In this document: positions 1 through 49,253 of the stretch, piece by piece | Numbering within the stretch: position 1 is the first letter of the stretch | Layout: each line of letters opens with the position of its first letter | Source: an uncultured Bacilli bacterium | GTDB taxonomy: Bacteria; Bacillota_I; Bacilli_A; RF39; UBA660 | Assembly: GCA_934096405.1 (NCBI GenBank) | Contig: CAKOLW010000003.1 | Location: forward strand, 3,282-67,281 | Length of the DNA: 64,000 nt | Direction of reading: 5' to 3' | Made by a program: the position numbers and the translations under genes | Notes under the pieces: generated by a model | What the model saw: only the letters and a program-made list of their open reading frames with translations | Database searches by the model: none | Told to the model about the DNA's origin: nothing

Positions 1-283
1 TGTCTAATGATTTATTAAATTTATTTAAATAATTTTTCAAATAAATTTTTAAAGTTCTGCTGTTACCATCACAAAATGGCTGTAAACATAAAATTGAAGA
101 TAAAGTATCTAATAATAATTCTTCATTAAGTGTTTGTTCTGAATTTAATTTTTTTAATTTAAATTCTATAGGTTTTAATATTTGCTCATCTCTTATATTA
201 AGATCAATTACATAGTCAAATAAACTATTATTTATTATAACTAGTTCATAAAAGTATGGATATTTTTCTTTTAAATTAGACAT
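1..283 (-). CDS. Fic/Doc-family-like protein, N-terminal part (gene runs off the left edge)
   Basis: Not in the ORF track because no stop lies in the window. Reverse-strand ATG at 283..281 is preceded by GGTGA. My translation MSNLKEKYPYFYELV...LCLQPFCDGNSRTLKIYLKNYL contains a Fic/Doc-like core (xPFxDGNxRT), but Gln sits where the catalytic His normally is. Confidence 0.4.
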   Translation of the reverse strand, partial: MSNLKEKYPYFYELVIINNSLFDYVIDLNIRDEQILKPIEFKLKKLNSEQTLNEELLLDTLSSILCLQPFCDGNSRTLKIYLKNYLNKFNKSLD

Positions 284-380
284 AATGTTTCACCGAAAAA
301 TATTGTAACAATTTTTTGGTTTTTTTTCTACCATTTAATTAAATAATATGGTAAAATAACATCAGAATAGGAAGGGTATT

Positions 381-1277
381 ATGAAAGTTTTATGTATAGG
401 ACATGCTAGTTATGATATATCTATGTATTCTGATGGATTTCCTAAAGAAAATACTAAATATAGACTTAAGGAAAAAAATGAGTGTGTAGGTGGTTCTGCT
501 TTAACAGCTAGTTTATTATTAGGAAAATGGGGAGTAGATACATATTATAGTGGCGTTATTGGAAATGATTATTTTGGAGATAAAGTTATAGAAGAACTTA
601 GAAATTCTAATGTAAATTATGACTATTTGATTAAATCTGATGATTTAGAAACTACAAAATCATTTATAGTTATAAATAAATATAATGCTTCTAGAACTAT
701 ATTTAATTCTTATCAAGCTTGTAATGAATTAGATATAAAATATAATTTTGAACCAGATATTATATATACTGATGGAGAACATTATGATTTAACTATTAAA
801 GCATTTGATAAATATCCTAATAGTATTAAAGTAATAGATGCAGGTAAAATAAATGAAAAAGTTACTAAGTTATGTAGTGTAAGTGATTATATAATTTGTT
901 CTAAAGAGTTTGCTGAGTTAATTAGTAAAATTAGAATTGATTTTGATGATCCAGATACAATAAAAAGTGTAATTAATGAATTAGAAAAATTATATAGTGG
1001 TAAAATAATTATTACATTAGAAAACAAAGGATGTTTATATAAAATTGAAGATAAGATTAAAATAATGAGTGGCATTAAGGTACATGCTATTGATACTACT
1101 GGGGCTGGAGATATATTTCATGGTGCTTTTATATATGGACTTTCAAAAAAATTAACACTTGAGAAATGTTTAAAGATAGCTAATATTGCTGCTGGATTAA
1201 GTGTTAAGAGAAAGGGATCTTCAAGTAGTATTCCTAATATAATGAAGGTACATGAAATATATGAAAAAAATAAATAA
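381..1277 (+). CDS. PfkB/ribokinase-family sugar kinase
   Basis: 298 aa. N-terminal GGSALTAS and C-terminal DTTGAGDIFHGAF match the two PfkB signature regions. AGGAAGGG RBS lies upstream. Confidence 0.8.
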   Translation: MKVLCIGHASYDISMYSDGFPKENTKYRLKEKNECVGGSALTASLLLGKWGVDTYYSGVIGNDYFGDKVIEELRNSNVNYDYLIKSDDLETTKSFIVINKYNASRTIFNSYQACNELDIKYNFEPDIIYTDGEHYDLTIKAFDKYPNSIKVIDAGKINEKVTKLCSVSDYIICSKEFAELISKIRIDFDDPDTIKSVINELEKLYSGKIIITLENKGCLYKIEDKIKIMSGIKVHAIDTTGAGDIFHGAFIYGLSKKLTLEKCLKIANIAAGLSVKRKGSSSSIPNIMKVHEIYEKNK

Positions 1278-1554
1278 TAATAATTTTATTGATCCATTTT
1301 ATACTTTATATAATGTTATAGATTTACATGGATTTGATAAAGAATATGCTTTATTTAAGGTAAATGAATTTATTAGTGATAGTCTTAAATTAAAAAAGTA
1401 TGACTTAATTATAATTCATGGAAAAGGGACTGGTGTATTAAAGAATTCTATACATGAGTTTTTAAAACACGATAAAAGAGTTATTGAATATAAAATTGAT
1501 AATTATAATGATGGACAAACTATAGTTAGGTTAGGTGAAATAAATGAAAAATAA
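1252..1554 (+). CDS. Smr (small MutS-related) domain protein
   Basis: IDLHG...IIIHGKGTGVLK is the typical Smr domain pattern. It overlaps both neighbouring genes, which suggests translational coupling. Confidence 0.7.
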   Translation: MKYMKKINNNNFIDPFYTLYNVIDLHGFDKEYALFKVNEFISDSLKLKKYDLIIIHGKGTGVLKNSIHEFLKHDKRVIEYKIDNYNDGQTIVRLGEINEK

Positions 1555-2998
1555 AAATGGTTTTACATTAGTTGAATTGCTAGCAGTTATTGCTTTAATA
1601 GGAGTAATAATGCTTTTAGTAGCACCTAAAGTTATTAATGTATTTAATGATAGTAAAAAAACTGCTTTTTATGATGAAGTAGTTAGTTTATATAACAATG
1701 CTTATACAACTTATGCTAGTAGATTATCAGAAGGTGATACAAGTAAAAGATATTGTTTAGGAGAAGATGAAACTTTAAATAAGTTAGAAATAAAAGATAA
1801 GAATAATTTTTATTATGATATACAATTAAATAATGAAGGAAAAGTAATAAAAATTAAAGTTAAAAATAAGAATTATAATATTTCTATATCTAATAGTAAT
1901 GGATTAGACAAAAGTGATATAAAAGTTGAAAGTGTTCAAGTTAATGATAAAACTCAATATTTAAATTGTAGTGGAGAGGGATTAACTTTGACACAAACTT
2001 TGTTAAGAGATAATCCAATAGTAAGTGAAAGAACTGATTTTTCACCATATCATGATGAGCCTATCGAAAATGGAACAATTTATAAAACTAATGAAACAGA
2101 AGATGGAAGTATAGTATATTATTACTATGGTAATATAAACAACAATTGGTTTAAGTTTGCTAATTATTATTGGCGAATAATAAGAACTAATGAAAATGGT
2201 GGAATAAGGTTATTATTTGTAGGAAAGAACCATGATACAATTGATGATAGTAAATTGTATAGTACTACTAGAAAATATAAAGATTTAACTGGTATTTCTT
2301 CTGATCCAATGTATGTTGGATTTATGTATGGAACAAGTGGGTCTTTAGAAAATAATAGAACAAATGAAAACATTAGTACTATATTAGAAGAGTTAGAATC
2401 ATGGTATGAAAAAAATATTTCATATAAATATGAAAAGTATATTAGTATGGATGCAATTTATTGTAATGATAGAAGCATTGGTAGTGGTACTTATTCTACT
2501 TCTTCATCCGATTATTTCAGATATGGTGCTTCTGTTAGATTATCTAATAAAACGCCTTCTTATAAATGTGGAGGAAATGGTAATGGTGGTACATTTGCTA
2601 CTGCCGGTGATGCTGATAAGTTTAGTGTAAGTAAAGCTTCAGGAGGAAATGGAGAATTAATTTACCCAATTGCTTTAATAACTTTAGATGAAATAGTTTT
2701 TGCTGGTGGTCCATATCCAAATGTTTGGTATTTTAGTACAAGTACTGGAAATACTTTGATTGAATATTATTCTTGGTGGACTATGACACCTATTAATTGG
2801 AACAATGGAAATTCAAGAGTAGCAGCAATTAATGGTGCAATTTATCCGGGAAGTTTCTCTAGTTTAAACATTGATTCTTCAGGAGGAGATTTGGCTGTTA
2901 TGAGACCTGTAATTTCACTAGATAAATGTGTTAAATTAAATGGTACTGGAACTGCAACTGATCCTTATGTCGTTGATGAAGATGCTAGTACTTGTTAG
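1544..2998 (+). CDS. Paralog P1: type IV prepilin-leader protein carrying the conserved YWRIIRTN...VRPVISL...STC core
   Basis: N-terminus MKNKNGFTLVELLAVIALIGVIM is a class III prepilin signal (G|FTLVE with Glu at +5). The rest aligns with 7 other ORFs in the window (LRDNP, NNWFKF, YWRIIRTNENGG, YVGFMYG, AIYCNDRS, YPIALITLDE, WWTMTP, MRPVISLDKC, DPYVVDEDASTC). Confidence 0.85.
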   Translation: MKNKNGFTLVELLAVIALIGVIMLLVAPKVINVFNDSKKTAFYDEVVSLYNNAYTTYASRLSEGDTSKRYCLGEDETLNKLEIKDKNNFYYDIQLNNEGKVIKIKVKNKNYNISISNSNGLDKSDIKVESVQVNDKTQYLNCSGEGLTLTQTLLRDNPIVSERTDFSPYHDEPIENGTIYKTNETEDGSIVYYYYGNINNNWFKFANYYWRIIRTNENGGIRLLFVGKNHDTIDDSKLYSTTRKYKDLTGISSDPMYVGFMYGTSGSLENNRTNENISTILEELESWYEKNISYKYEKYISMDAIYCNDRSIGSGTYSTSSSDYFRYGASVRLSNKTPSYKCGGNGNGGTFATAGDADKFSVSKASGGNGELIYPIALITLDEIVFAGGPYPNVWYFSTSTGNTLIEYYSWWTMTPINWNNGNSRVAAINGAIYPGSFSSLNIDSSGGDLAVMRPVISLDKCVKLNGTGTATDPYVVDEDASTC

Positions 2999-3008
2999 GA
3001 GGTATTGA

Positions 3009-4418
3009 ATGAAGAAAAGTAAAAAAGGATTTACATTGGTTGAACTATTAGCAGTTATTGCTTTAATAGGAGTAATTATGCTAATAGTTGCACCTAATGT
3101 TATAAGATTGTTTAAAAAGGGAACTAAGTCTGCATTTAAAAATGAAGTATTAACTATATATAATAGTGTGTATCCTACATATTTATCAAGAACTAGTGAT
3201 GGAGATTATTCAACTAGGTTTTGTTTTACACATGGTATAGGTGATTCATTGGATGTAGAAAATAAAGAAAATATTTCTTATGACATTTCTATTGATGATG
3301 ATGGTAATATAACAAAATTTACTGTTATTAATGATGATTATGTATTTAAAGGAAATAAAATTACTAAAAAAGATATTAAATCAAATAATATTAAAGAAAA
3401 AACTAATAGTGATGTAATAATATGTGATAATATACCTTTAACATTGTCACAAGCAATGTTGAGAGATAATCCGACAAGAAACGTAAGAAGTAATAATGAT
3501 GATATAACTGACTTTGTAGGACTATTTACTGAGAATACTACTGGGACATTGTTTACTTCAACAGAAAGTATAAGTGGAATAACTGATGTGCCACAAGAAG
3601 TATACTATTATGCTGGAAATACAACAAATAACTGGGTAAAATTCGGAGGATTTTACTGGAGAATAATAAGAACAAATCATGATGGAAGTGTAAGATTACT
3701 TTACTCCGGAACAAGCTCTGATACAACAAACGGTTATATTGGAACAAGTGCATATAATAGTTCAGCTAATAGCACAAAATATGCGGGATATAAGTATGGA
3801 GAAGATACTTCTTATGATACAATGACAAATAATACAATAGATAGTACAGTAAAAACATATATAGATGCATGGTATAAAAATAATTTAACAAATTATACAA
3901 AATACTTGAGTACAAGTGCAGTATATTGTAATGATAGAGGTATAAGTGGAATATATTCAGCAAGTACTAGATATTATTATGAATCATATACAAGAGCATA
4001 TTCATATTTAACACCAACTTATGATTGTTATAATCAAAAAGATGCGTTTAGTGTAGATAATACAAGTGCTAAATTAAATTACCCAATAGCTTTAATGACA
4101 TTTGATGAAATGTGGTTTGCTGGAAGTTGGAGAAATCCATCATGGAGTAGTCAATATGCTTGGTTACACACAAATAGTAAAGGAAATTCAATCACAGGTA
4201 ATACTAGATGGTGGTCTTTGTCACCTAATCGTTGGGATGGAAAAAATTCTTATCAGTGGAGTTGTGCTTTTGATGGTGATGCATATTTAGCAATGAGTAG
4301 TACAAACTCTAATTATGGTGTCCGTCCTGTAATATCATTAAAATCATGTGCTAAAGTAACAGGAACAGGAACTGCTGATAATCCATATGTAGTGGATGAA
4401 AAAAATTCTTCGTGCTAA
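3009..4418 (+). CDS. Paralog P2: type IV prepilin-leader protein with the conserved core (subtype A)
   Basis: MKKSKKGFTLVELLAVIALIGVIM prepilin leader. The core contains TGTLFTSTESISGITDVPQEVYYYAGNTTNNWVKFG, YWRIIRTNHDGSVRLLY, AVYCNDRG, YPIALMTFDE, WWSLSP, VRPVISLKSC and NPYVVDEKNSSC. Confidence 0.85.
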   Translation: MKKSKKGFTLVELLAVIALIGVIMLIVAPNVIRLFKKGTKSAFKNEVLTIYNSVYPTYLSRTSDGDYSTRFCFTHGIGDSLDVENKENISYDISIDDDGNITKFTVINDDYVFKGNKITKKDIKSNNIKEKTNSDVIICDNIPLTLSQAMLRDNPTRNVRSNNDDITDFVGLFTENTTGTLFTSTESISGITDVPQEVYYYAGNTTNNWVKFGGFYWRIIRTNHDGSVRLLYSGTSSDTTNGYIGTSAYNSSANSTKYAGYKYGEDTSYDTMTNNTIDSTVKTYIDAWYKNNLTNYTKYLSTSAVYCNDRGISGIYSASTRYYYESYTRAYSYLTPTYDCYNQKDAFSVDNTSAKLNYPIALMTFDEMWFAGSWRNPSWSSQYAWLHTNSKGNSITGNTRWWSLSPNRWDGKNSYQWSCAFDGDAYLAMSSTNSNYGVRPVISLKSCAKVTGTGTADNPYVVDEKNSSC

Positions 4419-4463
4419 GTATTGTAATAGATAAAATAATTTGATATAATTAAGTTACTTGAT

Positions 4464-4493
4464 GAGTGGGACAGAAATCCCACTCTTTAATTT
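4464..4493 (+). terminator. Intrinsic terminator after P2
   Basis: GAGTGGGA-cagaaa-TCCCACTC followed by TTTAATTT. Confidence 0.7.
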
Positions 4494-4508
4494 GATAAGG
4501 AGGATATA

Positions 4509-4766
4509 GTGAAAGAAAAGATATTAGAAGTAGTTACTGAGCCATTAAAAACTATTGGTGTAGAAGTAACTGATGTTAAGTTTGAAAAAGAAGATGGAGT
4601 AGATACATTATTTATTACAATTAATAATGGAAATATAGTTGATACTGAATTATGTGCTAAAGCAAGTGAAATAATTAATCCATTATTAGATACTTTAGAT
4701 ATACCAGAGTTAAATAATGAATATGTATTAGATGTAGGAAGTGAGGTTTCAGAAGATGAACAATAA
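4509..4766 (+). CDS. rimP: Ribosome maturation factor RimP, N-terminal domain only (truncated)
   Basis: GTG start after AAGGAGG. It sits directly upstream of nusA. The sequence LEVVTEPL...GVEVTDVKFEKEDGVDTLFITI is RimP-like, but it stops at 85 aa where the canonical SSPG motif and the C-terminal domain should follow. Confidence 0.6.
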   Translation: MKEKILEVVTEPLKTIGVEVTDVKFEKEDGVDTLFITINNGNIVDTELCAKASEIINPLLDTLDIPELNNEYVLDVGSEVSEDEQ

Positions 4767-5811
4767 AGAATTTAAAACAGCTTTTGATTTTATAGTTAAA
4801 GAAAAAAATATAGATCCAGAGGTAGTAAAGGAAGCAATGCAAAATGCTCTAGCAGCAGGTTATAAAAAGAACACTGGAGAAGATGCTGATGTAAGAGCAG
4901 AGTTTAATACTGAAAATGGTATGATTCGTCTATTTAGAAGAATGACTGTAGTAGATGAAATAGAAAATGAGGATACAGAATTAAGTCTAGAAGAAGCTCA
5001 AGAAATAAATCCTAACTATAAAGTAGGAGATGTTATTGAAAATGAAGTAGACTTTGAAGATTTTGGTCGTGTAGCAGTTAGTGTTGCTAAACAAGTAGTA
5101 CTTCAAAAGATTAGAGAAGTTGAAAGAAATCAAATTATGGATGAATTTAGAGATAAACAAGATGAAATGATGGTTGGTTTCTTAGCAATGGAAGATAATA
5201 GAAATTACTATGTTGATCTTGGAAAAGCAAGAGGAATATTACCTAAAAATGAACTAATTCCTGGAGAAACTTTAAGAATGGGAGATAGTGTTAAAGTTTA
5301 TATAGTAAGTGTTGAAGAAACTACTAAAGGGCCTTCAATTAGATTAAGTCGTAAACATTATGGATTTGTAAAAAGACTATTTGAAAATGAAATACCTGAA
5401 TTTGCTGAAGGAATACTAATAATGCATGGTGTTGCGCGTGAAGCAGGGGTAAGAAGTAAAGTTGCGATTGAAAGTATAAATCCTAATGTTGATGCTATAG
5501 GTAGTTGTATAGGAGAAAAAGGTACTCGTATTGCTAATATAATTAAGGCTTTAAATGGAGAAAAAGTAGATTTAGTATTATATGATGAGAATCCAGAAAA
5601 ATTTATAGAAAATGCTTTAAGTCCAGCTAAGAATTTAAATGTTACAATACAAGATGAAAAGAAAAGAGAAGCTTTAGTTATAACTGATAATGAAAATTTA
5701 AGTTTAGCTATTGGTAAAAAAGGAATTAATATTAAATTAGCTAGTAAATTAACTAGATATAAATTAAATATTAAGACTTTAGATGATATAAATAAAGAAA
5801 TTAATAAATAA
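4756..5811 (+). CDS. nusA: Transcription termination/antitermination factor NusA
   Basis: S1 and KH-domain sequence (GDSVKVYIVSVEE, GSCIGEKGTRI, AIGKKGINIKLA). I prefer the ATG at 4756 (MNNKEF, after GGAAGTGAGG) to the track's GTG at 4741. Confidence 0.95.
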   Translation: MNNKEFKTAFDFIVKEKNIDPEVVKEAMQNALAAGYKKNTGEDADVRAEFNTENGMIRLFRRMTVVDEIENEDTELSLEEAQEINPNYKVGDVIENEVDFEDFGRVAVSVAKQVVLQKIREVERNQIMDEFRDKQDEMMVGFLAMEDNRNYYVDLGKARGILPKNELIPGETLRMGDSVKVYIVSVEETTKGPSIRLSRKHYGFVKRLFENEIPEFAEGILIMHGVAREAGVRSKVAIESINPNVDAIGSCIGEKGTRIANIIKALNGEKVDLVLYDENPEKFIENALSPAKNLNVTIQDEKKREALVITDNENLSLAIGKKGINIKLASKLTRYKLNIKTLDDINKEINK

Positions 5812-30690: not shown

Positions 30691-32211
30691 ATGAAGGAAA
30701 GAAAATATGCTTTGTTTGGAATAATTACAACAATAATTTTAATAATTGGAACTACACTAGCATACTTTAAATTTCAAGTATTTGGAAATAAAAAAGTAAT
30801 AAATGTGGAATCAACTAACTTACAAATAATATTTAATAATGGAGATAGTACATTTGAAGGAAATGCTTTAGAACCAGGTAATTATGATGAAATAAAGACA
30901 TTTAGTGTTAAAAACGAAACAGATACAGAGTTTAAATATAATATAATAATAAAAGATTTAATAAATACATTTGTAACAAAAGGTTATTTAGTATATAAAA
31001 TAACTAATACATCAAATAATGGAGGATACAGTATGAATGATTTTGAAGATATACCAAAATCATCAATAGCTTTAGATATAGGACTAGCATATAATATAAC
31101 TATTCCATCAGGAGTAACACAGGATTATACTATAGAGATAAAGTATTTAAATGATCCAAGTTATGATCAATCAGATGATATGGAAAAAGAAGTATCAGGA
31201 AGTATTTATATAGCAAAAGGAACAGAACCAACATTTATAACAAAAATATTAGAACAGAATAAAACAATAAGTGAAAGAACTAATTTTAAAGTAACTAATA
31301 CAGATAAAACAACAGGAACAATATATAAAACAAATAAAACAGAAGACTCTAGTGATGTATATTATTATTCAGGTAATACAATAAATAACTGGGTTAAGTT
31401 TGGAAAGTATACAACGGATGATACTTCAAGTAAAAAATTATGGAAATCTGGAGACGATATGTACTGGAGAATAATAAGAACCAATGAAGATGGGAGTGTA
31501 AGACTATTATATTCTGGAACAAGTCCAGATACAACAGAAGGCTATATAGGAACCTCAGCATTTAATAATTCAACTAAAGATCCATTGTATGTAGGTTATA
31601 TGTATGGAACAAGTGGTTCATTAGAAAGTAATAGAACAAATGAAAATGATAGTACAATAAAAACTGTAATTGACAAGTGGTATCAAAATAATTTACTAAA
31701 TGATTATGATAAATATATAAGTAAATCAGCAATATATTGTAATGATAGAAATGCTAGTAATTATGCTTTAGAAGGAACATATTATTCTAGCGCATACAAT
31801 AGAATTGAACAAGGATCGCCTACTTTAAAATGCGAAAATAAAAGTGATTCATTTAGTTATAATAATACAAGTGCAAAATTAAAATATCCTATAGCATTAG
31901 TAACTACAGATGAATTAAATTTTGCTGGAGGATATCTACTTAGAGCTGAAGGCATTTATTTTACAGTTAATAGTAATAATCTTTCAATTACTAATACACT
32001 ATTTTGGTGGACAATGAGTCCTTGGGGACTATACACTACGATAGCAGATACCTTCAGAGTAAAAGATACAGGAGTAATAAATGGAAACAATGTTTCATTT
32101 TTATTTGCAGTTAGACCTGTTATATCTGTATCATCATGTGCAAGAGTTAAATCAGGTAATGGAACAGCAGATAATCCATATGTAGTAGATGAAGAAGCTA
32201 GCACTTGCTAG
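30691..32211 (+). CDS. Paralog P4: TasA/SipW-type signal plus N-terminal domain plus conserved core (mosaic subtype)
   Basis: Signal IIGTTLAYFKFQVFG. The core has TGTIYKTNKTEDSSDVYYYSGNTINNWVKFG, YWRIIRTNEDGSVRLLY, YVGYMYGTSGSLESNRTNEN, AIYCNDRN, YPIALVTTDE, WWTMSP, VRPVISVSSC and NPYVVDEEASTC. Confidence 0.85.
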   Translation: MKERKYALFGIITTIILIIGTTLAYFKFQVFGNKKVINVESTNLQIIFNNGDSTFEGNALEPGNYDEIKTFSVKNETDTEFKYNIIIKDLINTFVTKGYLVYKITNTSNNGGYSMNDFEDIPKSSIALDIGLAYNITIPSGVTQDYTIEIKYLNDPSYDQSDDMEKEVSGSIYIAKGTEPTFITKILEQNKTISERTNFKVTNTDKTTGTIYKTNKTEDSSDVYYYSGNTINNWVKFGKYTTDDTSSKKLWKSGDDMYWRIIRTNEDGSVRLLYSGTSPDTTEGYIGTSAFNNSTKDPLYVGYMYGTSGSLESNRTNENDSTIKTVIDKWYQNNLLNDYDKYISKSAIYCNDRNASNYALEGTYYSSAYNRIEQGSPTLKCENKSDSFSYNNTSAKLKYPIALVTTDELNFAGGYLLRAEGIYFTVNSNNLSITNTLFWWTMSPWGLYTTIADTFRVKDTGVINGNNVSFLFAVRPVISVSSCARVKSGNGTADNPYVVDEEASTC

Positions 32212-34677: not shown

Positions 34678-35001
34678 ATGTGTACTAATAGTGAAAATCA
34701 AATTAAAATAACTTTAGGAAAGAGAATTTATGAAGTATTAAAAAATGAATATCTTCAATGTTTAAGAACTTATCTTAGAGCTAACAAGAGAGTGGATTTA
34801 AGTGAAATTAATCCAATGGTATCTATTCCTACTGATTTTAGAATAGGTAATGTAGTTATGGATGGACAAGTTCTTGCAGTAACTAAAAAATATATGAATA
34901 TTAATGGACTTGATTTTGAATATATTTATGGTGATGATGGTTACGTATATTTTAATATAAGTTCACTTATAGAAGAAAAAAGTAAAAGTAAAAAGGCCTA
35001 A
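34678..35001 (+). CDS. Hypothetical protein (107 aa)
   Basis: ATG at 34678 (MCTNSENQ) follows AAGGGGGA and lies downstream of the promoter above. Confidence 0.5.
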   Translation: MCTNSENQIKITLGKRIYEVLKNEYLQCLRTYLRANKRVDLSEINPMVSIPTDFRIGNVVMDGQVLAVTKKYMNINGLDFEYIYGDDGYVYFNISSLIEEKSKSKKA

Positions 35002-35018
35002 TCTTGTAGGCCTTTTTT
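34991..35018. terminator. Bidirectional terminator between convergent genes
   Basis: AAAAGGCCTA-atcttg-TAGGCCTTTT, with A/T runs on both sides. It overlaps both stop codons. Confidence 0.8.
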
Positions 35019-36251
35019 GTTAAATTCTTTATGAAGAGCATGTGTACTCCATAATAGAGCATATTTATTTTGATTTATTATAAAATCAAATTCTCCAATG
35101 TATTCAAATACTTTTGGATTCCAACTTAATTTAAAATCATTTAATCCTTTATATGGATTGTTACTATCATTTGTACCAGTTATACCATTTAAATCTAAGA
35201 AACTATAACCATCATTTTTATACTTATTTATAATCATATAATGTAAATAATGATTTGGAAGTAATCTCTTATAACTTTTAATAAATCCACTAGTATATAT
35301 AGTAGCAACATTTTTATATTTTATAACTATTGCACCTGCAACAACTTCTTTAGCTGTTCCCTTTAAAATCTTTTCGTTTACGTCTGTCATTTCATTATTT
35401 AAATCATTAAGTTTTTTATCACTTAATGTTTTTTCATTATAAACTTGTCTATTTTGAGGATCCTGTTGGAATAATTTATTTAATTTTTCATTTATGTCAA
35501 GTTCAATTAAAATTTCTTCTTGGAGATTTTCTAAATATTCATGATATGCTACATCTACTAAATATAAATCAACCATTCCTTTAGCATCAAAAGTTTTATA
35601 CAAGTATTTATAAAAGTCTGGGTTAATATCATCTTTTCTTTTAACTAATTCATATAAATCATTTAAATTATATATATCTCCTTTATATATGTTTAATCCT
35701 TTTTGACCAATTCTTTCTAGGTTAGATTGTAATTTTTTATCTAAGTTATTAAAATTAAAAGTTTTTAAATTTAATATTGGATTATATTTTGGTAATAAAC
35801 TTTCAAAATATATATTATCTTTTAATTTTTGATATTTGTTTTGTACTAAATCAAATATAATATTATTACCAACTTGATTAACTACTTTAGTATTATCTAT
35901 TATATTTACATTGCTATATATAACTAATGGATTTATTTTAATAAAAGCATAGTTCTTTTTATTAAAATATTTTCTTAATGAAGTAGAGAAGTCTTCTAGT
36001 AATTCAGTGTTGGTATAATCAATTAAAAATCCTCTAGGACTATATCCATATTTAACATTTAAAGAAATATTTTTTTCTAATATTAAAGAAGCACCTACAA
36101 GTTCATTATTTATATAACCACCTATATAAATATCTTTATAACCACATTTACTCATAAATTCTCCGTAAGTACTTGTTTCATAAAAACTTCCTAATGGATG
36201 TTTGGATGAAAAATCATCAAAAGTATTCTTGTCTATTTCTTTAATAGTCAT
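34998..36251 (-). CDS. FemAB-family peptidoglycan interpeptide-bridge aminoacyltransferase
   Basis: 417 aa. It has two GNAT-like halves separated by a coiled-coil insert (LENLQEEILIELDINEKLNKL), which is the FemA/FemX/MurM architecture. The N-terminus is FSSKHPLGSFYETSTYGEF. Confidence 0.65.
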   Translation of the reverse strand: MTIKEIDKNTFDDFSSKHPLGSFYETSTYGEFMSKCGYKDIYIGGYINNELVGASLILEKNISLNVKYGYSPRGFLIDYTNTELLEDFSTSLRKYFNKKNYAFIKINPLVIYSNVNIIDNTKVVNQVGNNIIFDLVQNKYQKLKDNIYFESLLPKYNPILNLKTFNFNNLDKKLQSNLERIGQKGLNIYKGDIYNLNDLYELVKRKDDINPDFYKYLYKTFDAKGMVDLYLVDVAYHEYLENLQEEILIELDINEKLNKLFQQDPQNRQVYNEKTLSDKKLNDLNNEMTDVNEKILKGTAKEVVAGAIVIKYKNVATIYTSGFIKSYKRLLPNHYLHYMIINKYKNDGYSFLDLNGITGTNDSNNPYKGLNDFKLSWNPKVFEYIGEFDFIINQNKYALLWSTHALHKEFNKKGLQD

Positions 36252-37641: not shown

Positions 37642-39435
37642 ATGAGTAAAGAAATTAAAAGAAGTTATAAATTAACTATGTTAGTGGCTGTTTTATGTTT
37701 AATAGTAATAGTAGGATCTACTACTTATGCTTATTTTAAAACTAGAATTAGTGGTAGTGGTACTAAGATTGATATAAGTGGTAAGACTTTTGATTTAAAT
37801 ATTAATGAGAATAGTATTACACTTAATTCATTAAAGCCTATATATGATACAGATAAGGCTACTAAAGCTAATATAAAAACATTTACTGTTAGTGGTGGTG
37901 GCGTATCTAGTGGGTGCGTAAGTATTTATTTAACTTTAGATAGTATAGGTACTAACTTAGTTACTAGATTTTTAAAATATGAATTATTAGATGGTAGTAC
38001 TTTAGTATCAGCAGGAGATTTTAGTGGAAGAAGTGTTGGTAGTAGTGTATCTTTAGCTAAGAATATATCCTTAAGCGATTTAAGTAGTAAATCTTATACA
38101 TTAAGAATATGGTTAAGTTATGATGCTGATACAGATCAAAGTAGTATTTTAACAGGTACAGAAGCTGATAGAACATTGCAAGCTCATTTAAAAGCAGTTG
38201 GTACAACTGGTGCTTGTAAAGAATTAACTTTAAAAGAAGCAATTTTAAAAGATAATCCAACAGTCAGTGAAAGAACTAGTTTTACATCAACTAATGTAGC
38301 TAATACGACAGGAACAATATATAAAACAAATAAGACAGAAGACTCTAGTGATGTATATTATTACTCAGGTAATACAACAAATAACTGGGTTAAATTTGGA
38401 AAAGAAACAAGAGGTACTTGTTCATATAATAACAATAAGGTTATATATGTTGATTCAATAGAAGAATGGGAAGAGAAAGATAATAATTTATTAGAGTCTG
38501 AATGTACTGCTGCTAATGTTTGTATTTTTGAGGGAAATTATTATGTTTTTGGAGAAGAAGGCGTTACTTGTGCCGACTTAGATGGAACATCAGTTAATGA
38601 AAAGGCTACATTTACTCCATACCAATTAGATGCTTATTGGAGAATAATAAGAACAAATGAAGATGGTAGTGTAAGACTATTGTATTTTGGAACAAGTCCT
38701 GATACTACCGAACCTAGTATAGGTGTAAGTTATTTTAATGATAATAATTATGTCGGACAGTCTGGATATATGTATGATTTATATGTTGCAGGTTATTCAA
38801 CGGATTATGATGAAATTAGAGCTAATACTACAGATAGTACAATAAAAAAATTTATCGATACATGGTATGAAAAAAACTTATTAAGCAATTATGACAAATA
38901 TATAAGCAAAGCTGCTATATATTGTAATGATAGAAGTATAAAAGATAAAGATAATTTTTCTATGCCTACTAGAGATGATGTTGGTGCTTATATAAGGTTG
39001 TCCCATAAATCTCCATCTTATAAATGTGGTGCTGATAAAGATAATAATTTAATAGAGTCTACACAAGCAGTTGCAGATAAATTTAGTGCAAGTACAACAG
39101 GTGGAGGAAATGGACAATTAAAATATCCAATTGCTTTAATGACTGTTGACGAAATATCATTTGCTAGTATTTCTTCTACTAAATGGTATAATACAAATAG
39201 TAATAGTAATTCTGACTTAAATAATATAGGTTGGTGGCTTCTATCACCTTCTTCCTATAATTTATCTTCACAAGTATACAATATTGGTTCAACTGGTGCT
39301 ATGAATGATACTACTAAGCCAAATGAACTTTATACTGTTCGTCCTGTAATTTCCTTAGCCTCTTGTGTCAAAGTAACAGGAAGTGGGACTACAACTGATC
39401 CGTATATCGTGAATGAAAGTGCTAGTACATGCTAA
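37642..39435 (+). CDS. Paralog P5: TasA/SipW-type signal plus divergent N-terminal domain plus conserved core with a Cys-rich insert
   Basis: The signal VGSTTYAYFKTRISGSG and LNSLKPIYD resemble TasA (GGGTWAAFND, LSNLKPGD). The core has TGTIYKTNKTEDSSDVYYYSGNTTNNWVKFG, YWRIIRTNEDGSVRLLY, AIYCNDRS, KFSASTTGGGNGQLKYPIALMTVDE, WWLLSP, VRPVISLASC and DPYIVNESASTC. Confidence 0.85.
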   Translation: MSKEIKRSYKLTMLVAVLCLIVIVGSTTYAYFKTRISGSGTKIDISGKTFDLNINENSITLNSLKPIYDTDKATKANIKTFTVSGGGVSSGCVSIYLTLDSIGTNLVTRFLKYELLDGSTLVSAGDFSGRSVGSSVSLAKNISLSDLSSKSYTLRIWLSYDADTDQSSILTGTEADRTLQAHLKAVGTTGACKELTLKEAILKDNPTVSERTSFTSTNVANTTGTIYKTNKTEDSSDVYYYSGNTTNNWVKFGKETRGTCSYNNNKVIYVDSIEEWEEKDNNLLESECTAANVCIFEGNYYVFGEEGVTCADLDGTSVNEKATFTPYQLDAYWRIIRTNEDGSVRLLYFGTSPDTTEPSIGVSYFNDNNYVGQSGYMYDLYVAGYSTDYDEIRANTTDSTIKKFIDTWYEKNLLSNYDKYISKAAIYCNDRSIKDKDNFSMPTRDDVGAYIRLSHKSPSYKCGADKDNNLIESTQAVADKFSASTTGGGNGQLKYPIALMTVDEISFASISSTKWYNTNSNSNSDLNNIGWWLLSPSSYNLSSQVYNIGSTGAMNDTTKPNELYTVRPVISLASCVKVTGSGTTTDPYIVNESASTC

Positions 39436-42932: not shown

Positions 42933-43220
42933 ATGGAAAGTTTAACAACAGCTATAAGTGTACAAGTAGATAGACAAGACAAAGAATTAGCAACTGGTAT
43001 TTTAAGCAATTTAGGGTTAAATATGAGTACATATGTTAATATGGCTATAAAACAATTAATTAATAAAAATGGTGTACCTTTTGAAATAGTAAATCCTAAA
43101 CCAAGTAAAGAATTATTGGAGGCTTTAAAAGAGGGTGAAGATATACTAAGTGGAAAAGTAAAAACGAAAGGCTACCATAACATAAAGGAAATGTTTGAGG
43201 ATATTTTAAATGAAGATTGA
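42933..43220 (+). CDS. Type II antitoxin, RelB/DinJ family
   Basis: ISVQVDRQDKELATGILSNLGLNMSTYVNMAIKQL has the ribbon-helix-helix pattern of DinJ. It overlaps the toxin start. Confidence 0.8.
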   Translation: MESLTTAISVQVDRQDKELATGILSNLGLNMSTYVNMAIKQLINKNGVPFEIVNPKPSKELLEALKEGEDILSGKVKTKGYHNIKEMFEDILNED

Positions 43221-43518
43221 TGTTGGAAATACTTACTATGAAGTTAAAACAACTTCAAGATTTAATAAAGAATTAAAGAAGTTATATAAGCAACACAAAG
43301 ATATTAACAAGTTAATTGAAGTTGTGGAGACTTTAGCAAACGGAGAAGAATTATCAGAAAAATACAAAAATCATAAACTAATAAATGATAAAACATTTAA
43401 AGAGTGTTATGAGTGTCATATACAACCTGACTGGCTATTAGTTTATAAAGTACAAAATAATGAATTAGTATTATTACTTTTTGCAACTGGTAGTCATAGC
43501 GATTTATTTAATAAATAG
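43210..43518 (+). CDS. Type II toxin, YafQ/RelE family mRNA interferase
   Basis: FNKELKKL...HKL...ECHIQPDWLLVYKV...LVLLLFATGSHSDLF is the YafQ-type signature. Confidence 0.8.
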   Translation: MKIDVGNTYYEVKTTSRFNKELKKLYKQHKDINKLIEVVETLANGEELSEKYKNHKLINDKTFKECYECHIQPDWLLVYKVQNNELVLLLFATGSHSDLFNK

Positions 43519-44802: not shown

Positions 44803-47800
44803 AGAATAGGAATGATAAAAATGGTTAAAGTAAGAAAGTCTATAATTATATTTGGAATAATATCAATTGGCTTAACTATCTGTTTATTAGGCTCTTTAGA
44901 TAAAAATGAATCTAATAATAAATTAATTGGTATTTTAGAGAATACTACTTCTATAGATAACTATAGTACTGCTTTAACTGTGTTTTATAATTCTTTAGAT
45001 AAGTCTAATAATGAGGACGATAGAAATAAAAATTTATTAGAGACAACTATGTTTAATTGTAATAGTGGTGGATGTACTTCATTAGATAATTTCAAAAATA
45101 TAGGATTTTTAACTAAATATGAATATGATTTAATCGGTGGAGATAATTCATATTTATATAATTATTCTGATTATTATGTAATTAATAATGAAGGTAATAT
45201 TGAATCATTAAGTGGAGATAGTAATAGTGGTATCAGACCAACAGTTTATTTAAATGAAGGAACTAAAGTAACTGGAAGTGGTACAGTTAATGATCCATAT
45301 AAAATAAGTCACTATAAAGATATTAATTTTATTGCTTATACATTTAATGGAAAAGAGACTGATATTAAATATTCAGAATTGATTAAAACTAAAGCAATAA
45401 AGGCAATTAATTGTGAAAATGGAACTAAGGCAACTTGGGATACAGAAGAGAATGTAATAAAATTTAAAGATACAAAAGTACCTGACTTTTGTACTATAGA
45501 TTTTACAGATGGAATACAGATAACTTTAAATGCAACTAATGGAACAGTAATGACACCAGTAACAAGAGTAGTAGCCAATAAAGGTGAAACTACATATACT
45601 GTTACTCCAAATAGTGGTTATAAATTAACTGGTTCAAGTATCAGTTGTGATGGAGGAGCTACTATAGAATTAACTAATAAAGGAGTTAAAATATCTAATA
45701 TAACAAAAAAACAAACATGTAAAATAACATTGACTAAGAGTGGCCCATTCAAAGAAGGAACATTAGCTGAGAAAATATTATTAGATAATTCAAGATTGGC
45801 TTCACGTTCTAATTTCGAAACGTTTGGTGCTACTTTAGATTTGCCAAATATCATTTATACTACCAATAATACTGAAGATGGAAGTACGGTTTATTATTAT
45901 TCAGGCAACAATGCTAACAACTGGATTAAGTTTGGCAAAGAAACAACCGAAGGTCGTTGCACTTATGAAAATGAAGAAGTTTTTTATAGTAAAGAAGGAA
46001 AATATAATAAAATAACTACCGAATCAGAATGTAATTCTAAAACTGTTTGTTTAGAATATGGTAGACCAATATTCTACGATTATAGTTGTAGTGGAACTTA
46101 TTATAATAATACTTATAAAAGGGCTACATGGGTAGCATCCAAATCAAATCAAGATACTTATTGGAGAATAATTCGTACAAACGAAGATGGCGGATTAAGA
46201 TTACTTTATGTCGGTCCTAATCCAGAAACAAAAATGGGATATATTGGTCAAGCACAGTATAATAATACAGGCGATACCATACAAAATACTGATTCTATGT
46301 ATGTAGGATATATGTATGGGACAATTTCAGATAAACGAACTAATACAAATAGTAGTACAATCAAGGAATATTTAGAAAACTGGTATAAAAATAATTTATT
46401 TGCAAAATATGATAAATATATAAGTAAAACAGCAATTTATTGTAATGATAGAAGTTCTACATATGTTTCTGGAAATGGAAGCACTTATTCTTCAAGCACA
46501 AGACTTAATATTTTGTCGCCTTCTTATAGGTGTGGTGATACTGGTTTTGGAACACTTGTTGAAGAATTTCAAGCAATTAACGATAAGTTTAGTGTTAGCA
46601 AGGCTTCAGGTGGTAATGGACAATTAACTTATCCGATTGCATTAATAACTGCTGATGAAATAGCCTTTGCTGGAGGTAGAAACCAAAAATACGATGAGAA
46701 TGATGCATCATTAAATTTTAATAATAAATTATATTATTATGCTAATAGTAATGGAGGAAGTGTGATAGGTGCTAGCAAAAGTTGGTGGACAATGAGTCCA
46801 AATCATGATGGCGCAAGTTATTCAAGTCCATATCATATTCCAACTTTAAAATTAGTAGGGGGATATCAAATTACACAATATACTGGCACTTATTATGGAG
46901 CCTTATATACTGGTTATTCATATGGTGTTGGTTTAGTTCGTCCAGTCATTTCCTTAAAATCTTGTGTTAAATTTAAAAATGGAAATGGAACTTCTGGAAA
47001 TCCATATGAAATTACAATAGATGATGCTTGTGCTAAAGCAGAAAATTAAAAAATAGAATAGGAATGATAAAAATGGTTAAAGTAAGAAAATCTATAATTA
47101 TATTTGGCTTAATATCAATTGGTTTGACTATATGTTTATTAGAGTCTTTAGATAAAAATGAATCTAATAATAAATTAATTGGTATTTTAGAGAATACTAC
47201 TTCTATAGATAACTATAGTACTGCTTTAACTGTGTTTTATAATTCTTTAGATAAGTCTAATAATGAGGACGATAGAAATAAAAATTTATTAGAGACAACT
47301 ATGTTTAATTGTAATAGTGGTGGATGTACTTCATTAGATAATTTCAAAAATATAGGATTTTTAACTAAATATGAATATGATTTAATCGGTGGAGATAATT
47401 CATATTTATATAATTATTCTGATTATTATGTAATTAATAATGAAGGTAATATTGAATCATTAAGTGGAGATAGTAATAGTGGTATCAGACCAACAGTTTA
47501 TTTAAATGAAGGAACTAAAGTAACTGGAAGTGGTACAGTTAATGATCCATATAAAATAAGTCACTATAAAGATATTAATTTTATTGCTTATACATTTAAT
47601 GGAAAAGAGACTGATATTAAATATTCAGAATTGATTAAAACTAAAGCAATAAAGGCAATTAATTGTGAAAATGGAACTAAGGCAACTTGGGATACAGAAG
47701 AGAATGTAATAAAATTTAAAGATACAAAAGTACCTGACTTTTGTACTATAGATTTTACAGATGGAATACAGATAACTTTAAATGCAACTAATGGAACAGT

Positions 47801-48027
47801 AATGACACCAGTAACAAGAGTAGTAGCCAATAAAGGTGAAACTACATATACTGTTACCCCTAATAGTGGTTATAAGTTAGCTAATTCAAGTATCAGTTGT
47901 GATGGAGGAGCTACTATAGAATTAACTAGTACTGGAGTTAAAATATCTAATATAACAAAAACACAAATTTGTAAAATAACATTGACTAAGAGTGGTCCAT
48001 TTAAAGAAGGAACATTAGCTGAGAGAA
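44803..48027 (+). repeat. Tandem direct repeat (unit 2252 bp); the first ~970 bp of each unit are near-identical
   Basis: 44803..45775 aligns with 47055..48027 at a constant offset of 2252. The identical antisense track ORFs 45336..45578 and 47588..47830 show 100% identity across at least 243 nt. Identity decays after GCTGAGA at 45773/48025. Confidence 0.9.
44812..47049 (+). CDS. Paralog P6: TM anchor plus mini-module plus Ig-like repeat plus conserved core with a Cys-rich insert
   Basis: N-terminal TM segment. The mini-module is FLTKYEYDLIGG...GIRPTVYLNEGTKVTGSGTVNDPYKI. Next comes TYTVTPNSGYKL. The core has LAEKILLDN, NNWIKFG, YWRIIRTNEDGGLRLLY, AIYCNDRS, KFSVSKASGGNGQLTYPIALITADE, WWTMSP and VRPVISLKSC. 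The C-terminus is ACAKAEN. The start may be the ATG at 44821. Confidence 0.85.
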   Translation: MIKMVKVRKSIIIFGIISIGLTICLLGSLDKNESNNKLIGILENTTSIDNYSTALTVFYNSLDKSNNEDDRNKNLLETTMFNCNSGGCTSLDNFKNIGFLTKYEYDLIGGDNSYLYNYSDYYVINNEGNIESLSGDSNSGIRPTVYLNEGTKVTGSGTVNDPYKISHYKDINFIAYTFNGKETDIKYSELIKTKAIKAINCENGTKATWDTEENVIKFKDTKVPDFCTIDFTDGIQITLNATNGTVMTPVTRVVANKGETTYTVTPNSGYKLTGSSISCDGGATIELTNKGVKISNITKKQTCKITLTKSGPFKEGTLAEKILLDNSRLASRSNFETFGATLDLPNIIYTTNNTEDGSTVYYYSGNNANNWIKFGKETTEGRCTYENEEVFYSKEGKYNKITTESECNSKTVCLEYGRPIFYDYSCSGTYYNNTYKRATWVASKSNQDTYWRIIRTNEDGGLRLLYVGPNPETKMGYIGQAQYNNTGDTIQNTDSMYVGYMYGTISDKRTNTNSSTIKEYLENWYKNNLFAKYDKYISKTAIYCNDRSSTYVSGNGSTYSSSTRLNILSPSYRCGDTGFGTLVEEFQAINDKFSVSKASGGNGQLTYPIALITADEIAFAGGRNQKYDENDASLNFNNKLYYYANSNGGSVIGASKSWWTMSPNHDGASYSSPYHIPTLKLVGGYQITQYTGTYYGALYTGYSYGVGLVRPVISLKSCVKFKNGNGTSGNPYEITIDDACAKAEN

Positions 48028-49253
48028 TACTTTTAAATAATCCAAATGTAGAGACAAGAAGTGATTTTAGTAATACATTTAATGCCGATTCTTTTAATGT
48101 AAATAAGGGTTTATTTACTATTTATAAGATTTCTAGCACTTCTGGTAATCAAATGACAGAAGATACAGATAATGATGGAATGGGTGAGGATGTATATTAT
48201 TATGCTGGATATACAGTTAATAACTGGGTAAAGTTTGGAACATATCCAACAGATTTATATTATTATAGTTATGTTTTAAATTCACGACTTTATACTGGCT
48301 ATGTTACTTCTAATTCTTCTTGTTGCCCTAGTGGTGTTACTTGTACCTGCAGTAAAATGTATTCTAAAGGTGATGATATTTTATGGAGAATAATTCGTAC
48401 TAATGAAGATGGCGGAGTAAGATTGTTATATACAGGTTTTAAGAATGGCATAATTAATAACGGAGAACTTATACAAAATAATTATACTTATACTATTCCA
48501 GGCTCTAGTGATAAATTTAACGATTTGGGTTATATGTATGGAATGGCTACCAGTTACAATGCGGCAACGATCGAGAACGCTAGACTAAATACTAATGATA
48601 GTGTTCAAAAAAATAGAATTGATACATGGTATCAAAATAATTTATTAAATGATTATGACAAATATATTAGTAAAACAGCTATATATTGTGATGACAGAAG
48701 CATTTCAGTAAGCAATTCAACTGAATGGTTTGGGACAGCTAAAAGATCTAGTAATAATACGCCTTCTTATTTATGCGGTAGCAATGGTACTGGTGGATTA
48801 TTTGAAAGTACTCAGGCAATAGAAGATAAATTTAGTGTAAGCAAAAGTTCTGGAGGAAATGGACAATTAAAATATCCAATTGGAATGATGACTGTTGATG
48901 AAGTTATCTTTGCTGGAGCACAATCTGGAAAAACTTCAGTATCTCCCTATTTTTGGTTGTTAAGAGATAAATATAATCAACAAAGTATGAATTCTTTCCA
49001 ATTATTTAGCTATCGAACTTTTCAAAAAACTACAACTTATGGAATTTATCGTTATATTATGACTCCTATTGTTAATAATAGTTCTAGTTCAATACTTTAT
49101 GATGTTTTAAATACAGATGGTTATACTGGAACTAATGGTTTAAGACCTGTTACTTCATTAAAATCTTGTGTTAAGTGGCTCAAAGGCGACGGTACAGCTA
49201 ACCACCCTTACGAAGTTACAATAGATGCTGCTTGTGCTAACACAGAAAATTAA
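47064..49253 (+). CDS. Paralog P7: tandem copy of P6 with a near-identical N-terminal ~320 aa and a diverged core
   Basis: The first ~320 aa are near-identical to P6. The core has NNWVKFG, LWRIIRTNEDGGVRLLY, AIYCDDRS, KFSVSKSSGGNGQLKYPIGMMTVDE and LRPVTSLKSC. The WWxxSP motif is degenerate. The C-terminus is ACANTEN. Confidence 0.85.
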   Translation: MIKMVKVRKSIIIFGLISIGLTICLLESLDKNESNNKLIGILENTTSIDNYSTALTVFYNSLDKSNNEDDRNKNLLETTMFNCNSGGCTSLDNFKNIGFLTKYEYDLIGGDNSYLYNYSDYYVINNEGNIESLSGDSNSGIRPTVYLNEGTKVTGSGTVNDPYKISHYKDINFIAYTFNGKETDIKYSELIKTKAIKAINCENGTKATWDTEENVIKFKDTKVPDFCTIDFTDGIQITLNATNGTVMTPVTRVVANKGETTYTVTPNSGYKLANSSISCDGGATIELTSTGVKISNITKTQICKITLTKSGPFKEGTLAERILLNNPNVETRSDFSNTFNADSFNVNKGLFTIYKISSTSGNQMTEDTDNDGMGEDVYYYAGYTVNNWVKFGTYPTDLYYYSYVLNSRLYTGYVTSNSSCCPSGVTCTCSKMYSKGDDILWRIIRTNEDGGVRLLYTGFKNGIINNGELIQNNYTYTIPGSSDKFNDLGYMYGMATSYNAATIENARLNTNDSVQKNRIDTWYQNNLLNDYDKYISKTAIYCDDRSISVSNSTEWFGTAKRSSNNTPSYLCGSNGTGGLFESTQAIEDKFSVSKSSGGNGQLKYPIGMMTVDEVIFAGAQSGKTSVSPYFWLLRDKYNQQSMNSFQLFSYRTFQKTTTYGIYRYIMTPIVNNSSSSILYDVLNTDGYTGTNGLRPVTSLKSCVKWLKGDGTANHPYEVTIDAACANTEN

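Follow-up and report, generated by a model that had tools for sequence, protein, structure and literature searches.

Candidate modular type IV pilins with an amplified core domain in an uncultured bacterium of the RF39 lineage

We analyzed a 64-kb stretch of DNA from an uncultured Bacilli bacterium (GTDB lineage Bacteria; Bacillota_I; Bacilli_A; RF39; UBA660; GenBank assembly GCA_934096405.1, contig CAKOLW010000003.1, positions 3,282 to 67,281 of the forward strand), hereafter called the window. Two of its adjacent genes, P1 and P2, join a prepilin leader peptide and a small pilin module to a large C-terminal domain, the core, that recurs elsewhere in the window. We classify P1 and P2, in which a first-pass annotation of this DNA had noted a type IV prepilin leader, as bona fide modular type IV pilins. 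We put at roughly 65% the probability that they are such pilins, with their cores displayed on a type IV filament. Display of the core on a pilus or pseudopilus in the manner of a minor or tip pilin, which that annotation had suggested, is likewise supported and agrees with how modular pilins have been defined in the literature (PMC8179133, PMC9934059). Proteins of this kind combine a pilin module with a domain that is also found elsewhere, and >1,200 of them, in 264 architectures, have been described (PMC8179133).

Leader peptides and pilin modules of P1 and P2

The P1 open reading frame (ORF) occupies 1544..2998 and encodes 484 aa beginning MKNKNG/FTLVELLAVIALIGVIM, and the P2 ORF occupies 3009..4418 and encodes 469 aa beginning MKKSKKG/FTLVELLAVIALIGVIM, where the slash marks the predicted cleavage site. 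The first-pass annotation had described a textbook class III leader with Glu+5 in front of mature proteins of about 460 to 480 aa that bear the family core, and this description was borne out. The predicted mature sizes are 478 aa (P1) and 462 aa (P2), the core was recovered by tblastn, and the N-termini scored above the curated cut-offs of both Pfam N_methyl (PF07963; 29.6 bits for P1 and 30.6 bits for P2 against a cut-off of 21.2) and TIGR02532 (27.1 and 28.6 bits against 16.3). Both proteins have the features of the class III signal peptides of type IV pilins, namely, an FTLVE start with Gly-1, Phe+1, and Glu+5, and the mature N-terminus, read as FTLVELLAVIALIGVIML.VAP, also has Gly14 and Pro22, as in classical pilins. 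Over their full length, P1 and P2 share 39% identity (BLASTP, E=9e-100), and the N-terminal part of alpha1 is almost the same in the two genes, including a run of 26 nt of identical DNA. Among NCBIfam models, the nearest N-terminal matches were ComGE, GspG, and ComGC, all short and well under the equivalog cut-offs. Membership in the Com minor pilins (ComGC/GD/GE/GF/GG) was rejected, as these cut-offs were not reached (best score, ComGE with 28 bits against 49) and the Com matches span the N-terminal helix only.

To characterize the region behind the leader, we built a module profile from the P1/P2 alignment of residues 1 to 150 and ran it with HMMER, exhaustively, against 1.84 billion representative proteins. 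This search returned 10,906 matches at E<=1e-3 and 763 representative clusters at E<=1e-10. Stand-alone pilins of 130 to 180 aa matched the P1/P2 module end to end with E values of 3e-49 to 1e-20; the top non-self matches, P0129 (175 aa, 3e-49), P0130 (141 aa, 2e-41), and P0133 (140 aa, 2e-38), aligned over profile positions 1 to ~145. That the entire module is homologous to genuine stand-alone pilins, with E values down to 3e-49, rules out that the leader motif arose by chance. Numerous longer proteins, of 200 to 2158 aa, have the module alone in common with P1 and P2. A 40-sequence module profile also matched pilins from solved filaments, among them Geobacter PilA-N (6e-11), Myxococcus PilA (2e-9), Thermus PilA4 (7e-9 over 109 positions), and Streptococcus sanguinis PilE1 (3e-8), and MshA and GspG matched too.

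An AlphaFold2 (AF2) model of full-length P1, computed from a 24-sequence alignment, had a mean predicted local distance difference test score (pLDDT) of 81 and a predicted template modeling score (pTM) of 0.71. In this model the pilin module consists of a 53-residue helix (residues 9-61) and strands at 69-72, 90-95, 101-107, and 111-116, with pLDDT values of 77 to 93 for the block, and is thus predicted to adopt the lollipop fold of alpha1 and a sheet head. A linker (~117-144) modeled with less confidence (pLDDT 71-76) leads to the core. The succession of a pilin module (residues 1 to ~116), a linker, and a core at residues 145-484 is the architecture of modular pilins in the sense of PMC8179133.

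The locus that corresponds to P1 in other species bears on how this architecture arose. In three of them, the gene after pfkB and smr encodes, respectively, a plain pilin of 141 aa (P0130, L013), a plain pilin of 175 aa (P0129, L010-L012), and a 580-aa fusion of pilin and core (P0131, L014). Since the orthologous pfkB-smr locus holds either plain pilins or pilins with the core, comparison of these loci indicates that a pilin gene was there first and acquired the core by grafting. Fusions of this kind were found in 5 of the 148 best module homologs (P0131, P0143, P0161, P0170, and P0268, taken as 50%-identity clusters) and in two further GTDB genomes (L043, 934 aa; L056, 568 aa). Among the matches listed from genome contigs, the pilin modules of relatives were 27 to 66% identical over the best segment and 35 to 40% identical where the match spanned the whole module. 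These relatives have been deposited as metagenome-assembled genomes (MAGs) of uncultured Bacilli, Bacillales, Mollicutes, or Tenericutes.

One could suppose that the N-terminus is never cleaved and serves as a simple signal anchor, its likeness to pilins being vestigial, since other members of the core family are exported with ordinary signal anchors. We consider this hardly credible, because Gly-1, Phe+1, and Glu+5 are intact in P1, P2, and all of their strain variants, a complete pilin head homologous to free-standing pilins has been kept, and a prepilin peptidase is present in the organism (see below). P1 and P2 each occur in 3 sequence variants (over 17 contigs for P1) that lie 2 to 8 substitutions apart, with no substitution in P1 residues 1-128. 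As the variants differ by so few substitutions and contain no frameshifts in either gene, we conclude that both genes are maintained.

The core and its other carriers

Residues ~145-484 of P1 recur in six further ORFs of the window (tblastn, E 1e-50 to 3e-83), none of which has a prepilin leader (Table 1). The same was true of all 119 non-self proteins among the best 120 homologs of full-length P1; most of these carry two tandem cores behind a SipW-type or plain signal peptide. The added module of P1 and P2 therefore also occurs in non-pilin proteins, both in the window (6 ORFs) and in the databases (119 proteins), as is characteristic of modular pilins. In total, we counted 8 cores in the 64-kb window, at least 2 more just past it, and thousands of database homologs. 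The core is a self-standing extracellular domain that is carried, besides the pilin module, by a SipW-type/camelysin-like N-terminus or by a signal anchor with an immunoglobulin-like repeat region. Because the lineage exports it on these other carriers, the pilin is best seen as one of several interchangeable display scaffolds.

Modeled in isolation from a 21-sequence alignment, the core gave a pLDDT of 84 and a pTM of 0.88, and residues 145-484 are accordingly predicted to fold on their own. Foldseek searches with the core model against PDB and BFVD returned nothing below E=0.3, those with the full-length model against PDB returned nothing below E=0.2, and a hidden Markov model (HMM) of the core had no match among PDB sequences. 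The invariant positions of the core include C307 and C342 of P1, the CNDR and T.DE motifs, and a C-terminal RPVISL...G.G...PY; Cys462 and Cys484 of P1 form a second conserved pair of cysteines. Weak matches to DUF6273 (PF19789) were seen over the last ~70 residues (WW.LSP ... VRPVISL) in 5 of the 21 family members, with a best E value of 5e-5. The paralog at 18684 reached 19.5 bits against a cut-off of 23.5, and P1 and P2 gave no match, so that by Pfam gathering score the core is not a member of this family. In receptor-binding proteins of phages, DUF6273 domains have been characterized as C-type-lectin-like, and they are known from gut phages and Firmicutes (PMC10743442); no C-type lectin match for the core was obtained with Foldseek. 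Our best guess, from its export, expansion, conserved cysteines, and this lectin-like hint, is that the core could be a binding module resembling those of adhesins. It is unlikely to be the target of a diversity-generating retroelement, because neither a reverse transcriptase nor another sign of such an element was noticed among the ORFs of the window, which were not searched systematically for one.

The paralogs differ from P1 and P2 in a core insertion between NNWVKFG and YWRIIRTN, which is found in five of them and in the external fusions P0131 and P0268. In the window paralogs the insertion is Cys-rich and 30 to 75 residues long (19400..19620, 38400..38630, and 45940..46150, with equivalents in 47064 and 58909), and in P1, P2, and the paralog at 30691 it is missing or present in a short, Cys-free version. 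The tandem genes at 44812..47049 and 47064..49253 have near-identical N-terminal parts of ~310 residues and diverged cores, and these N-terminal parts contain a miniature copy of the C-terminal motif of the core (..IRPTVYL..GSGT..PY).

We also asked whether the N-terminal domain of the SipW-type paralogs belongs to the TasA/camelysin family. The best match to Peptidase_M73 (E=7e-4) scored 16 bits against a cut-off of 22.5, TIGR04088 scored 13.2 bits against 19, and a profile of the domain did not find TasA in PDB. With sub-threshold matches to the two models and no match in PDB, the assignment is kept as a lead only. A wider reading of the data is that a single module has been amplified and is interchangeable among pilins (P1, P2, and a 515-aa protein described below), a possibly fibre-forming SipW/TasA-like domain, and signal anchors, in a cell whose type IV machinery would be unusual, with dispersed genes and a platform protein extended by ~200 residues. 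We regard this reading as doubtful, and its TasA-like part draws on the sub-threshold matches just mentioned. If it were true, and if the pilin and TasA-like carriers both polymerise, the same adhesin with a new fold would stand on two filament systems of one cell.

Filament machinery of the organism and its relatives

As the first-pass annotation had stated, the window holds no prepilin peptidase, ATPase, or platform gene: phmmer searches of the six-frame translation of the 64 kb with verified PilB/C/D/M/T queries found no type IV pilus machinery. That annotation had proposed the presence of such genes elsewhere in the genome as a test. The outcome was divided, as the peptidase and the platform protein were found through shared samples and the ATPase was found in relatives only. 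For the loci, ATPase, PilC, and PilD were searched by phmmer with verified PilB/C/D queries; a Walker-A regular expression for GspE was discarded, since in the fetched loci it picked up mostly ABC transporters.

The platform protein, P0517 (T2SSF, 601 aa; L125 10001..11806), adjoins the gene for an A24 prepilin peptidase of 252 aa (A24_N_bact plus Peptidase_A24), which has a GGGDIK active-site motif and an N-terminal CxxC..CxxC. Contigs carrying P0517 and the peptidase come from samples ERZ28613787, ERZ27287180, and ERZ4560700, which are samples that contain the window's exact P1 or P0126. In ERZ4560700, the one shared sample whose contig names state it, the coverage of the P0517 contig was 4.77 compared to 4.99 and 4.90 for the window contigs, and the G+C content of the platform-peptidase locus (26.3%) is close to that of the window (26.0%). 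P0517 was found on 6 contigs, the longest of 66,313 bp, and its sources in NCBI and ENA follow the pattern of P1, with Logan in addition, as with P0126. Strain variants gave a parallel result. The P1 variant P0121, which differs from P1 by 8 substitutions and lies in an identical pfkB-smr-P1-P2-rimP context on 8 contigs, co-occurs in four samples (ERZ27287381, ERZ4559741, ERZ28615654, and ERZ28615633) with the platform cluster P0342 (601 aa; 8 contigs, or 7 by collection tally). The contig counts of the three sequence variants per protein were 6/8/3 and 6/7/3. Through the strain variants P0121 and P0517, P0342 was confirmed as the organism's PilC cluster, and P0373 and P0297 were rejected. Because the samples are shared and the coverage and G+C content match, we conclude that the organism of the window encodes both a platform protein of the GspF/PilC type (P0517) and a prepilin peptidase.

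The GspF model matched P0517 with 276 bits over residues 197-596, behind a Lys-rich, hydrophobic N-terminal extension of ~195 residues. This long form is typical of the lineage, with lengths of ~590 to 625 aa in the 120 best matches, and the ~600-aa PilC family of the lineage yielded 3,485 matches at E<=1e-10. At all 5 lineage loci examined, which lie amid housekeeping genes, the peptidase gene directly follows PilC. Four consecutive genes of MAG Tb.RUG.9, whose IF-3 is 78% identical to that of the window, encode a 625-aa T2SSF protein, a 248-aa A24 peptidase, a homologous modular pilin of 533 aa, and a core-family protein of 1267 aa. A GspE/PilB-type ATPase (T2SSE, E=4e-123) is encoded in relatives beside a penicillin-binding protein (PBP) gene and divergently from a gene for a pilin of 140 to 167 aa, followed by proS; the ATPase and short pilin are neighbors in three relatives. 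This ATPase, of 449 aa, covers no more of GspE/PilB than the C-terminal ~380 residues and, among NCBIfam models, is nearest to GspE/PilB, below the equivalog cut-off. Throughout the lineage the machinery genes stand singly or in pairs, not in a pil operon, in arrangements such as ftsAZ-PilC-PilD-ruvAB, prsA-PilC-PilD-rpsD, and PBP-T2SSE/pilin-proS-pheST (L094-L098, L100-L107, and L113-L124).

Several of these observations weigh against the display of the cores on a type IV filament. The platform protein and peptidase are tied to the organism of the window by co-occurrence, coverage, and G+C content, not by a single contiguous assembly. The ATPase is not tied to its genome, as the two clusters looked up (P0445 and P0422) both came from other samples. 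No PilM/N/O or PilT gene was found next to any lineage locus examined, no equivalog cut-off was reached, and the machinery genes are scattered among housekeeping genes. Given these scores, the lack of PilM/N/O and PilT at the loci, and the scattering of the genes, the filament could be a short pseudopilus as well as a true pilus. The core, for its part, had no significant structural or sequence match (Foldseek against PDB/BFVD, HMM against PDB sequences), and the term adhesin, as a candidate role, draws on analogy, extracellular export, and a weak DUF6273 match that lies outside P1 and P2.

In light of these points, P1 and P2 might be processed without the assembly of a long pilus and be anchored in the membrane, or form a short pseudopilus or stalk through the wall, as an export and anchoring device like the archaeal bindosome or the Com and type II secretion system (T2SS) pseudopili. 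The scattered genes, the short ATPase, the absence of PilM/N/O or a retraction ATPase from the lineage loci, and the ComGE, GspG, and ComGC identity of the nearest N-terminal matches would all agree with such a device, but we consider it unlikely. Those N-terminal matches are short and well under the equivalog cut-offs, the platform protein scores higher with GspF/PilC (276 bits) than with ComGB (161 bits; NCBIfam, both below equivalog cut-offs), the module profile recognizes major pilins of genuine pili, and the lineage has many pilin paralogs, including the plain 140-aa pilins beside the ATPase, that could form a shaft.

The same short pilins bear on whether P1 and/or P2 could be major subunits, with every subunit of the shaft carrying a core. 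Consistent with this, their alpha1 is of the canonical major-pilin kind, with Gly14 and Pro22, and is nearly identical in both genes down to the 26-nt run, and the smr-linked orthologous gene in relatives encodes a plain 140-aa pilin. However, a 340-residue module on a pilin of ~140 residues would be hard to pack at every position of a type IV filament, published modular pilins are minor subunits modeled at the tip (PMC8179133, PMC9934059), and pilins short enough to fit a shaft are encoded beside the ATPase in relatives. We consider major-subunit status very unlikely.

Taken together, these data favor P1 and P2 as modular type IV pilins, for which we propose the following course of events. 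Both proteins would be made as prepilins and held in the membrane by their class III signal peptides. The PilD-like peptidase of the organism (252 aa) is predicted to cut after Gly6 of P1 and Gly7 of P2 and to methylate Phe+1. The ~140-residue module, with alpha1 and a four-stranded sheet, would then enter a filament on the GspF/PilC-like platform with a GspE/PilB-like ATPase. With so bulky a cargo on a small module, P1 and P2 most likely occur in low numbers, at the filament tip or close to it, where they could present the ~340-residue core outward as a binding (adhesin-like) module.

Genomic setting and relation to known modular pilins

The first-pass annotation had further suggested that P1 and P2 are co-transcribed with the PfkB kinase and Smr genes in front of them. 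This is plausible from the gene arrangement, in which the ORFs overlap, the gap between P1 and P2 is 10 nt, and the first terminator-like hairpin lies behind P2 (Table 1). Other genomes lend it further weight, as contigs of other species (L010-L014) keep the order pfkB-smr-pilin and MAG Tb.RUG.9 keeps smr-pilin (L024); two database gene calls (P0134 and P0200) have Smr fused to the pilin. The promoter-like site and hairpin at 4422..4485 lie ahead of rimP-nusA-infB and may form a leader or attenuator, not a P2 terminator alone.

Table 1. Features of the window that concern P1, P2, and the core family
Feature	Coordinates	Strand	Basis or remark
pfkB-family sugar kinase, first gene of presumed operon	381..1277	+	Pfam PfkB E=5e-43; pfkB-smr-pilin order kept in relatives
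Smr-domain protein, overlaps pfkB; overlaps P1 start by 11 nt	1252..1554	+	Pfam Smr E=3e-17
P1 leader peptide MKNKNG	1544..1561	+	Predicted prepilin-peptidase cleavage after Gly6; sequence read; N_methyl and TIGR02532 above cut-offs
P1 pilin module and linker, residues 7-144	1562..1975	+	AF2 model; end-to-end homology to 130-180 aa pilins; solved-pilin profile matches
P1 core module, residues 145-484, and stop codon	1976..2998	+	tblastn/phmmer paralog matches; AF2 model
GGAGG, putative ribosome-binding site for P2, 6 nt upstream of ATG	2998..3002	+	Sequence read
P2 leader peptide MKKSKKG	3009..3029	+	Predicted cleavage after Gly7; sequence read; N_methyl and TIGR02532 scores
P2 pilin module and linker, residues 8-141	3030..3431	+	45% identity to P1 module; aligned to profile positions 1-153 in the search of representative proteins
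P2 core module, residues 142-469, and stop codon	3432..4418	+	BLASTP P1 vs P2; phmmer domain 144-469
Promoter-like site before hairpin, TTGTAA-17-TATAAT with extended TG	4422..4450	+	Ahead of rimP-nusA-infB
Terminator-like hairpin with T-rich tail, after P2	4464..4485	+	Sole terminator-like site in 1..4800
Core paralog, transmembrane segment and TLAYF, SipW-type/camelysin-like N-terminus (non-pilin)	18684..20408	+	tblastn, phmmer
Core paralog, SipW-type N-terminus	30691..32211	+	tblastn, phmmer
Core paralog, signal/transmembrane N-terminus ending TYAYF	37642..39435	+	tblastn, phmmer
Core paralog, N-terminus of a third type, with a signal anchor and a short DUF6273-like piece	44812..47049	+	Weak sub-threshold Flg_new_2 (divergent InlB B-repeat) match
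Core paralog, tandem duplicate of 44812..47049 gene	47064..49253	+	tblastn, phmmer
Core paralog, SipW-type N-terminus	58909..60570	+	tblastn, phmmer
Third prepilin-like ORF, 152 aa, MLNKNG/WGIVEALVF	62762..63220	+	Motif only; not in first-pass annotation

The third prepilin-like ORF of the window had no Pfam or NCBIfam match. It follows topA and is itself followed by a gene for a 107-aa transmembrane protein, all ahead of two Flg_new-repeat proteins of 417 and 390 aa (as seen on L004). The region 62762..63543, with that from ~63610 to the end, may be another pilin-linked cluster of surface proteins. Contigs that extend past the end of the window (L004-L008) contain, ~7.8 kb downstream (L004 17803..19973), a tandem pilin-like set of 53 aa (MNKKG/FISMS, no Glu5), 151 aa (MYKKG/FVFIE), and 515 aa (MNKKG/FTLVEV...). 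The 515-aa protein (N_methyl, 26.4 bits) joins a pilin module to the core found in P1 and P2, and a SipW-type core paralog comes next. This arrangement is reminiscent of a cluster of minor pilins in which the cargo sits on the largest protein. A number of assemblies are interrupted here, probably because the family is repeated.

Three further features of the window were recorded. A Cys-rich protein of 157 aa (58167..58640) matches the spore coat protein CotZ (E=1e-11), and an ORF at 34998..36251 appears FemAB-like by eye. Judged by these two ORFs, the organism would seem to be walled and possibly sporulating, and some of its relatives are labeled Mollicutes/Tenericutes. A small overlapping pair at 42933..43518 has, again by eye, the look of a DinJ/RelB antitoxin and a YafQ/RelE-type toxin. 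Elsewhere, a canonical pilus operon of Robinsoniella peoriensis is directly followed by an ORF of 3102 residues with a prepilin leader (L065 10813..20121), an extreme modular pilin, and in MAG Lapin-027__bin88 homologs of the P1 pilin module were found at 12 or more loci. In this MAG, a 756-aa modular pilin lies downstream of a Tad/Flp-like cluster (L023 2298..9821) that encodes a 421-aa T2SSE-family ATPase, two TadB/C-like membrane proteins, and an 89-aa Flp-like peptide.

It is through modular pilins, on the current view, that simple type IV filaments gain new binding functions. To our knowledge, few of them have been studied, all from cultured pathogens. The genes described here place the same design in an uncultured commensal lineage of the human gut. 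Their core has no solved or predicted structural relative in PDB or BFVD and belongs to one of the most amplified gene families of that genome, which makes it a strong candidate for a determinant of gut colonization that binds the host or glycans. The lineage also offers a natural experiment, with the same module on pilin, SipW-type, and plain-signal carriers and with an orthologous pilin locus that has the module in some sister species and lacks it in others.

Among known systems, the S. sanguinis modular pilins, which have been modeled in a tip complex (PMC9934059), are among the closest to P1 and P2. PilB of this monoderm host is a minor pilin thought to be adhesive and located at the tip, and it shares with P1 and P2 a class III leader, a small pilin module, a linker, and a bulky C-terminal module known outside pilins. 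The differences are that the cargo of PilB is a vWA module and that of P1 and P2 is a domain of ~340 residues without a match in PDB or BFVD, and that P1 and P2 form two diverged tandem copies in a pfkB-smr operon, not a pil locus. S. sanguinis PilC is a modular minor pilin whose concanavalin-A-like lectin module binds glycans and which is stabilized by the minor pilin PilA (PMC9934059). The 515-aa pilin-core gene past the window, with the small 53-aa and 151-aa pilin-like genes before it, could be a parallel to PilC and PilA; however, no lectin fold was detected in the core, and its similarity to DUF6273 is weak. Pilin modules with extra domains at filament tips are also known from CofB of enterotoxigenic Escherichia coli, T2SS GspK, and Thermus ComZ (PMC8179133). 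The extra domain of GspK and ComZ sits within the pilin sheet as an insertion, whereas the core of P1 and P2 is appended C-terminally after a linker, and there is no sequence similarity between them.

A prepilin-type leader is also common to P1, P2, and the sugar-binding proteins of the Sulfolobus bindosome, large extracellular binding proteins that we take to be archaeal class III-leader substrates other than pilins. The bindosome proteins lack a pilin head domain and P1 and P2 have a complete one; NCBIfam holds a model for the bindosome ATPase BasE. Since the modular pilin architecture has already been described, our finding extends the existing picture rather than changes it, and what P1 and P2 add is a cargo domain that is uncharacterized and new in modular pilins.

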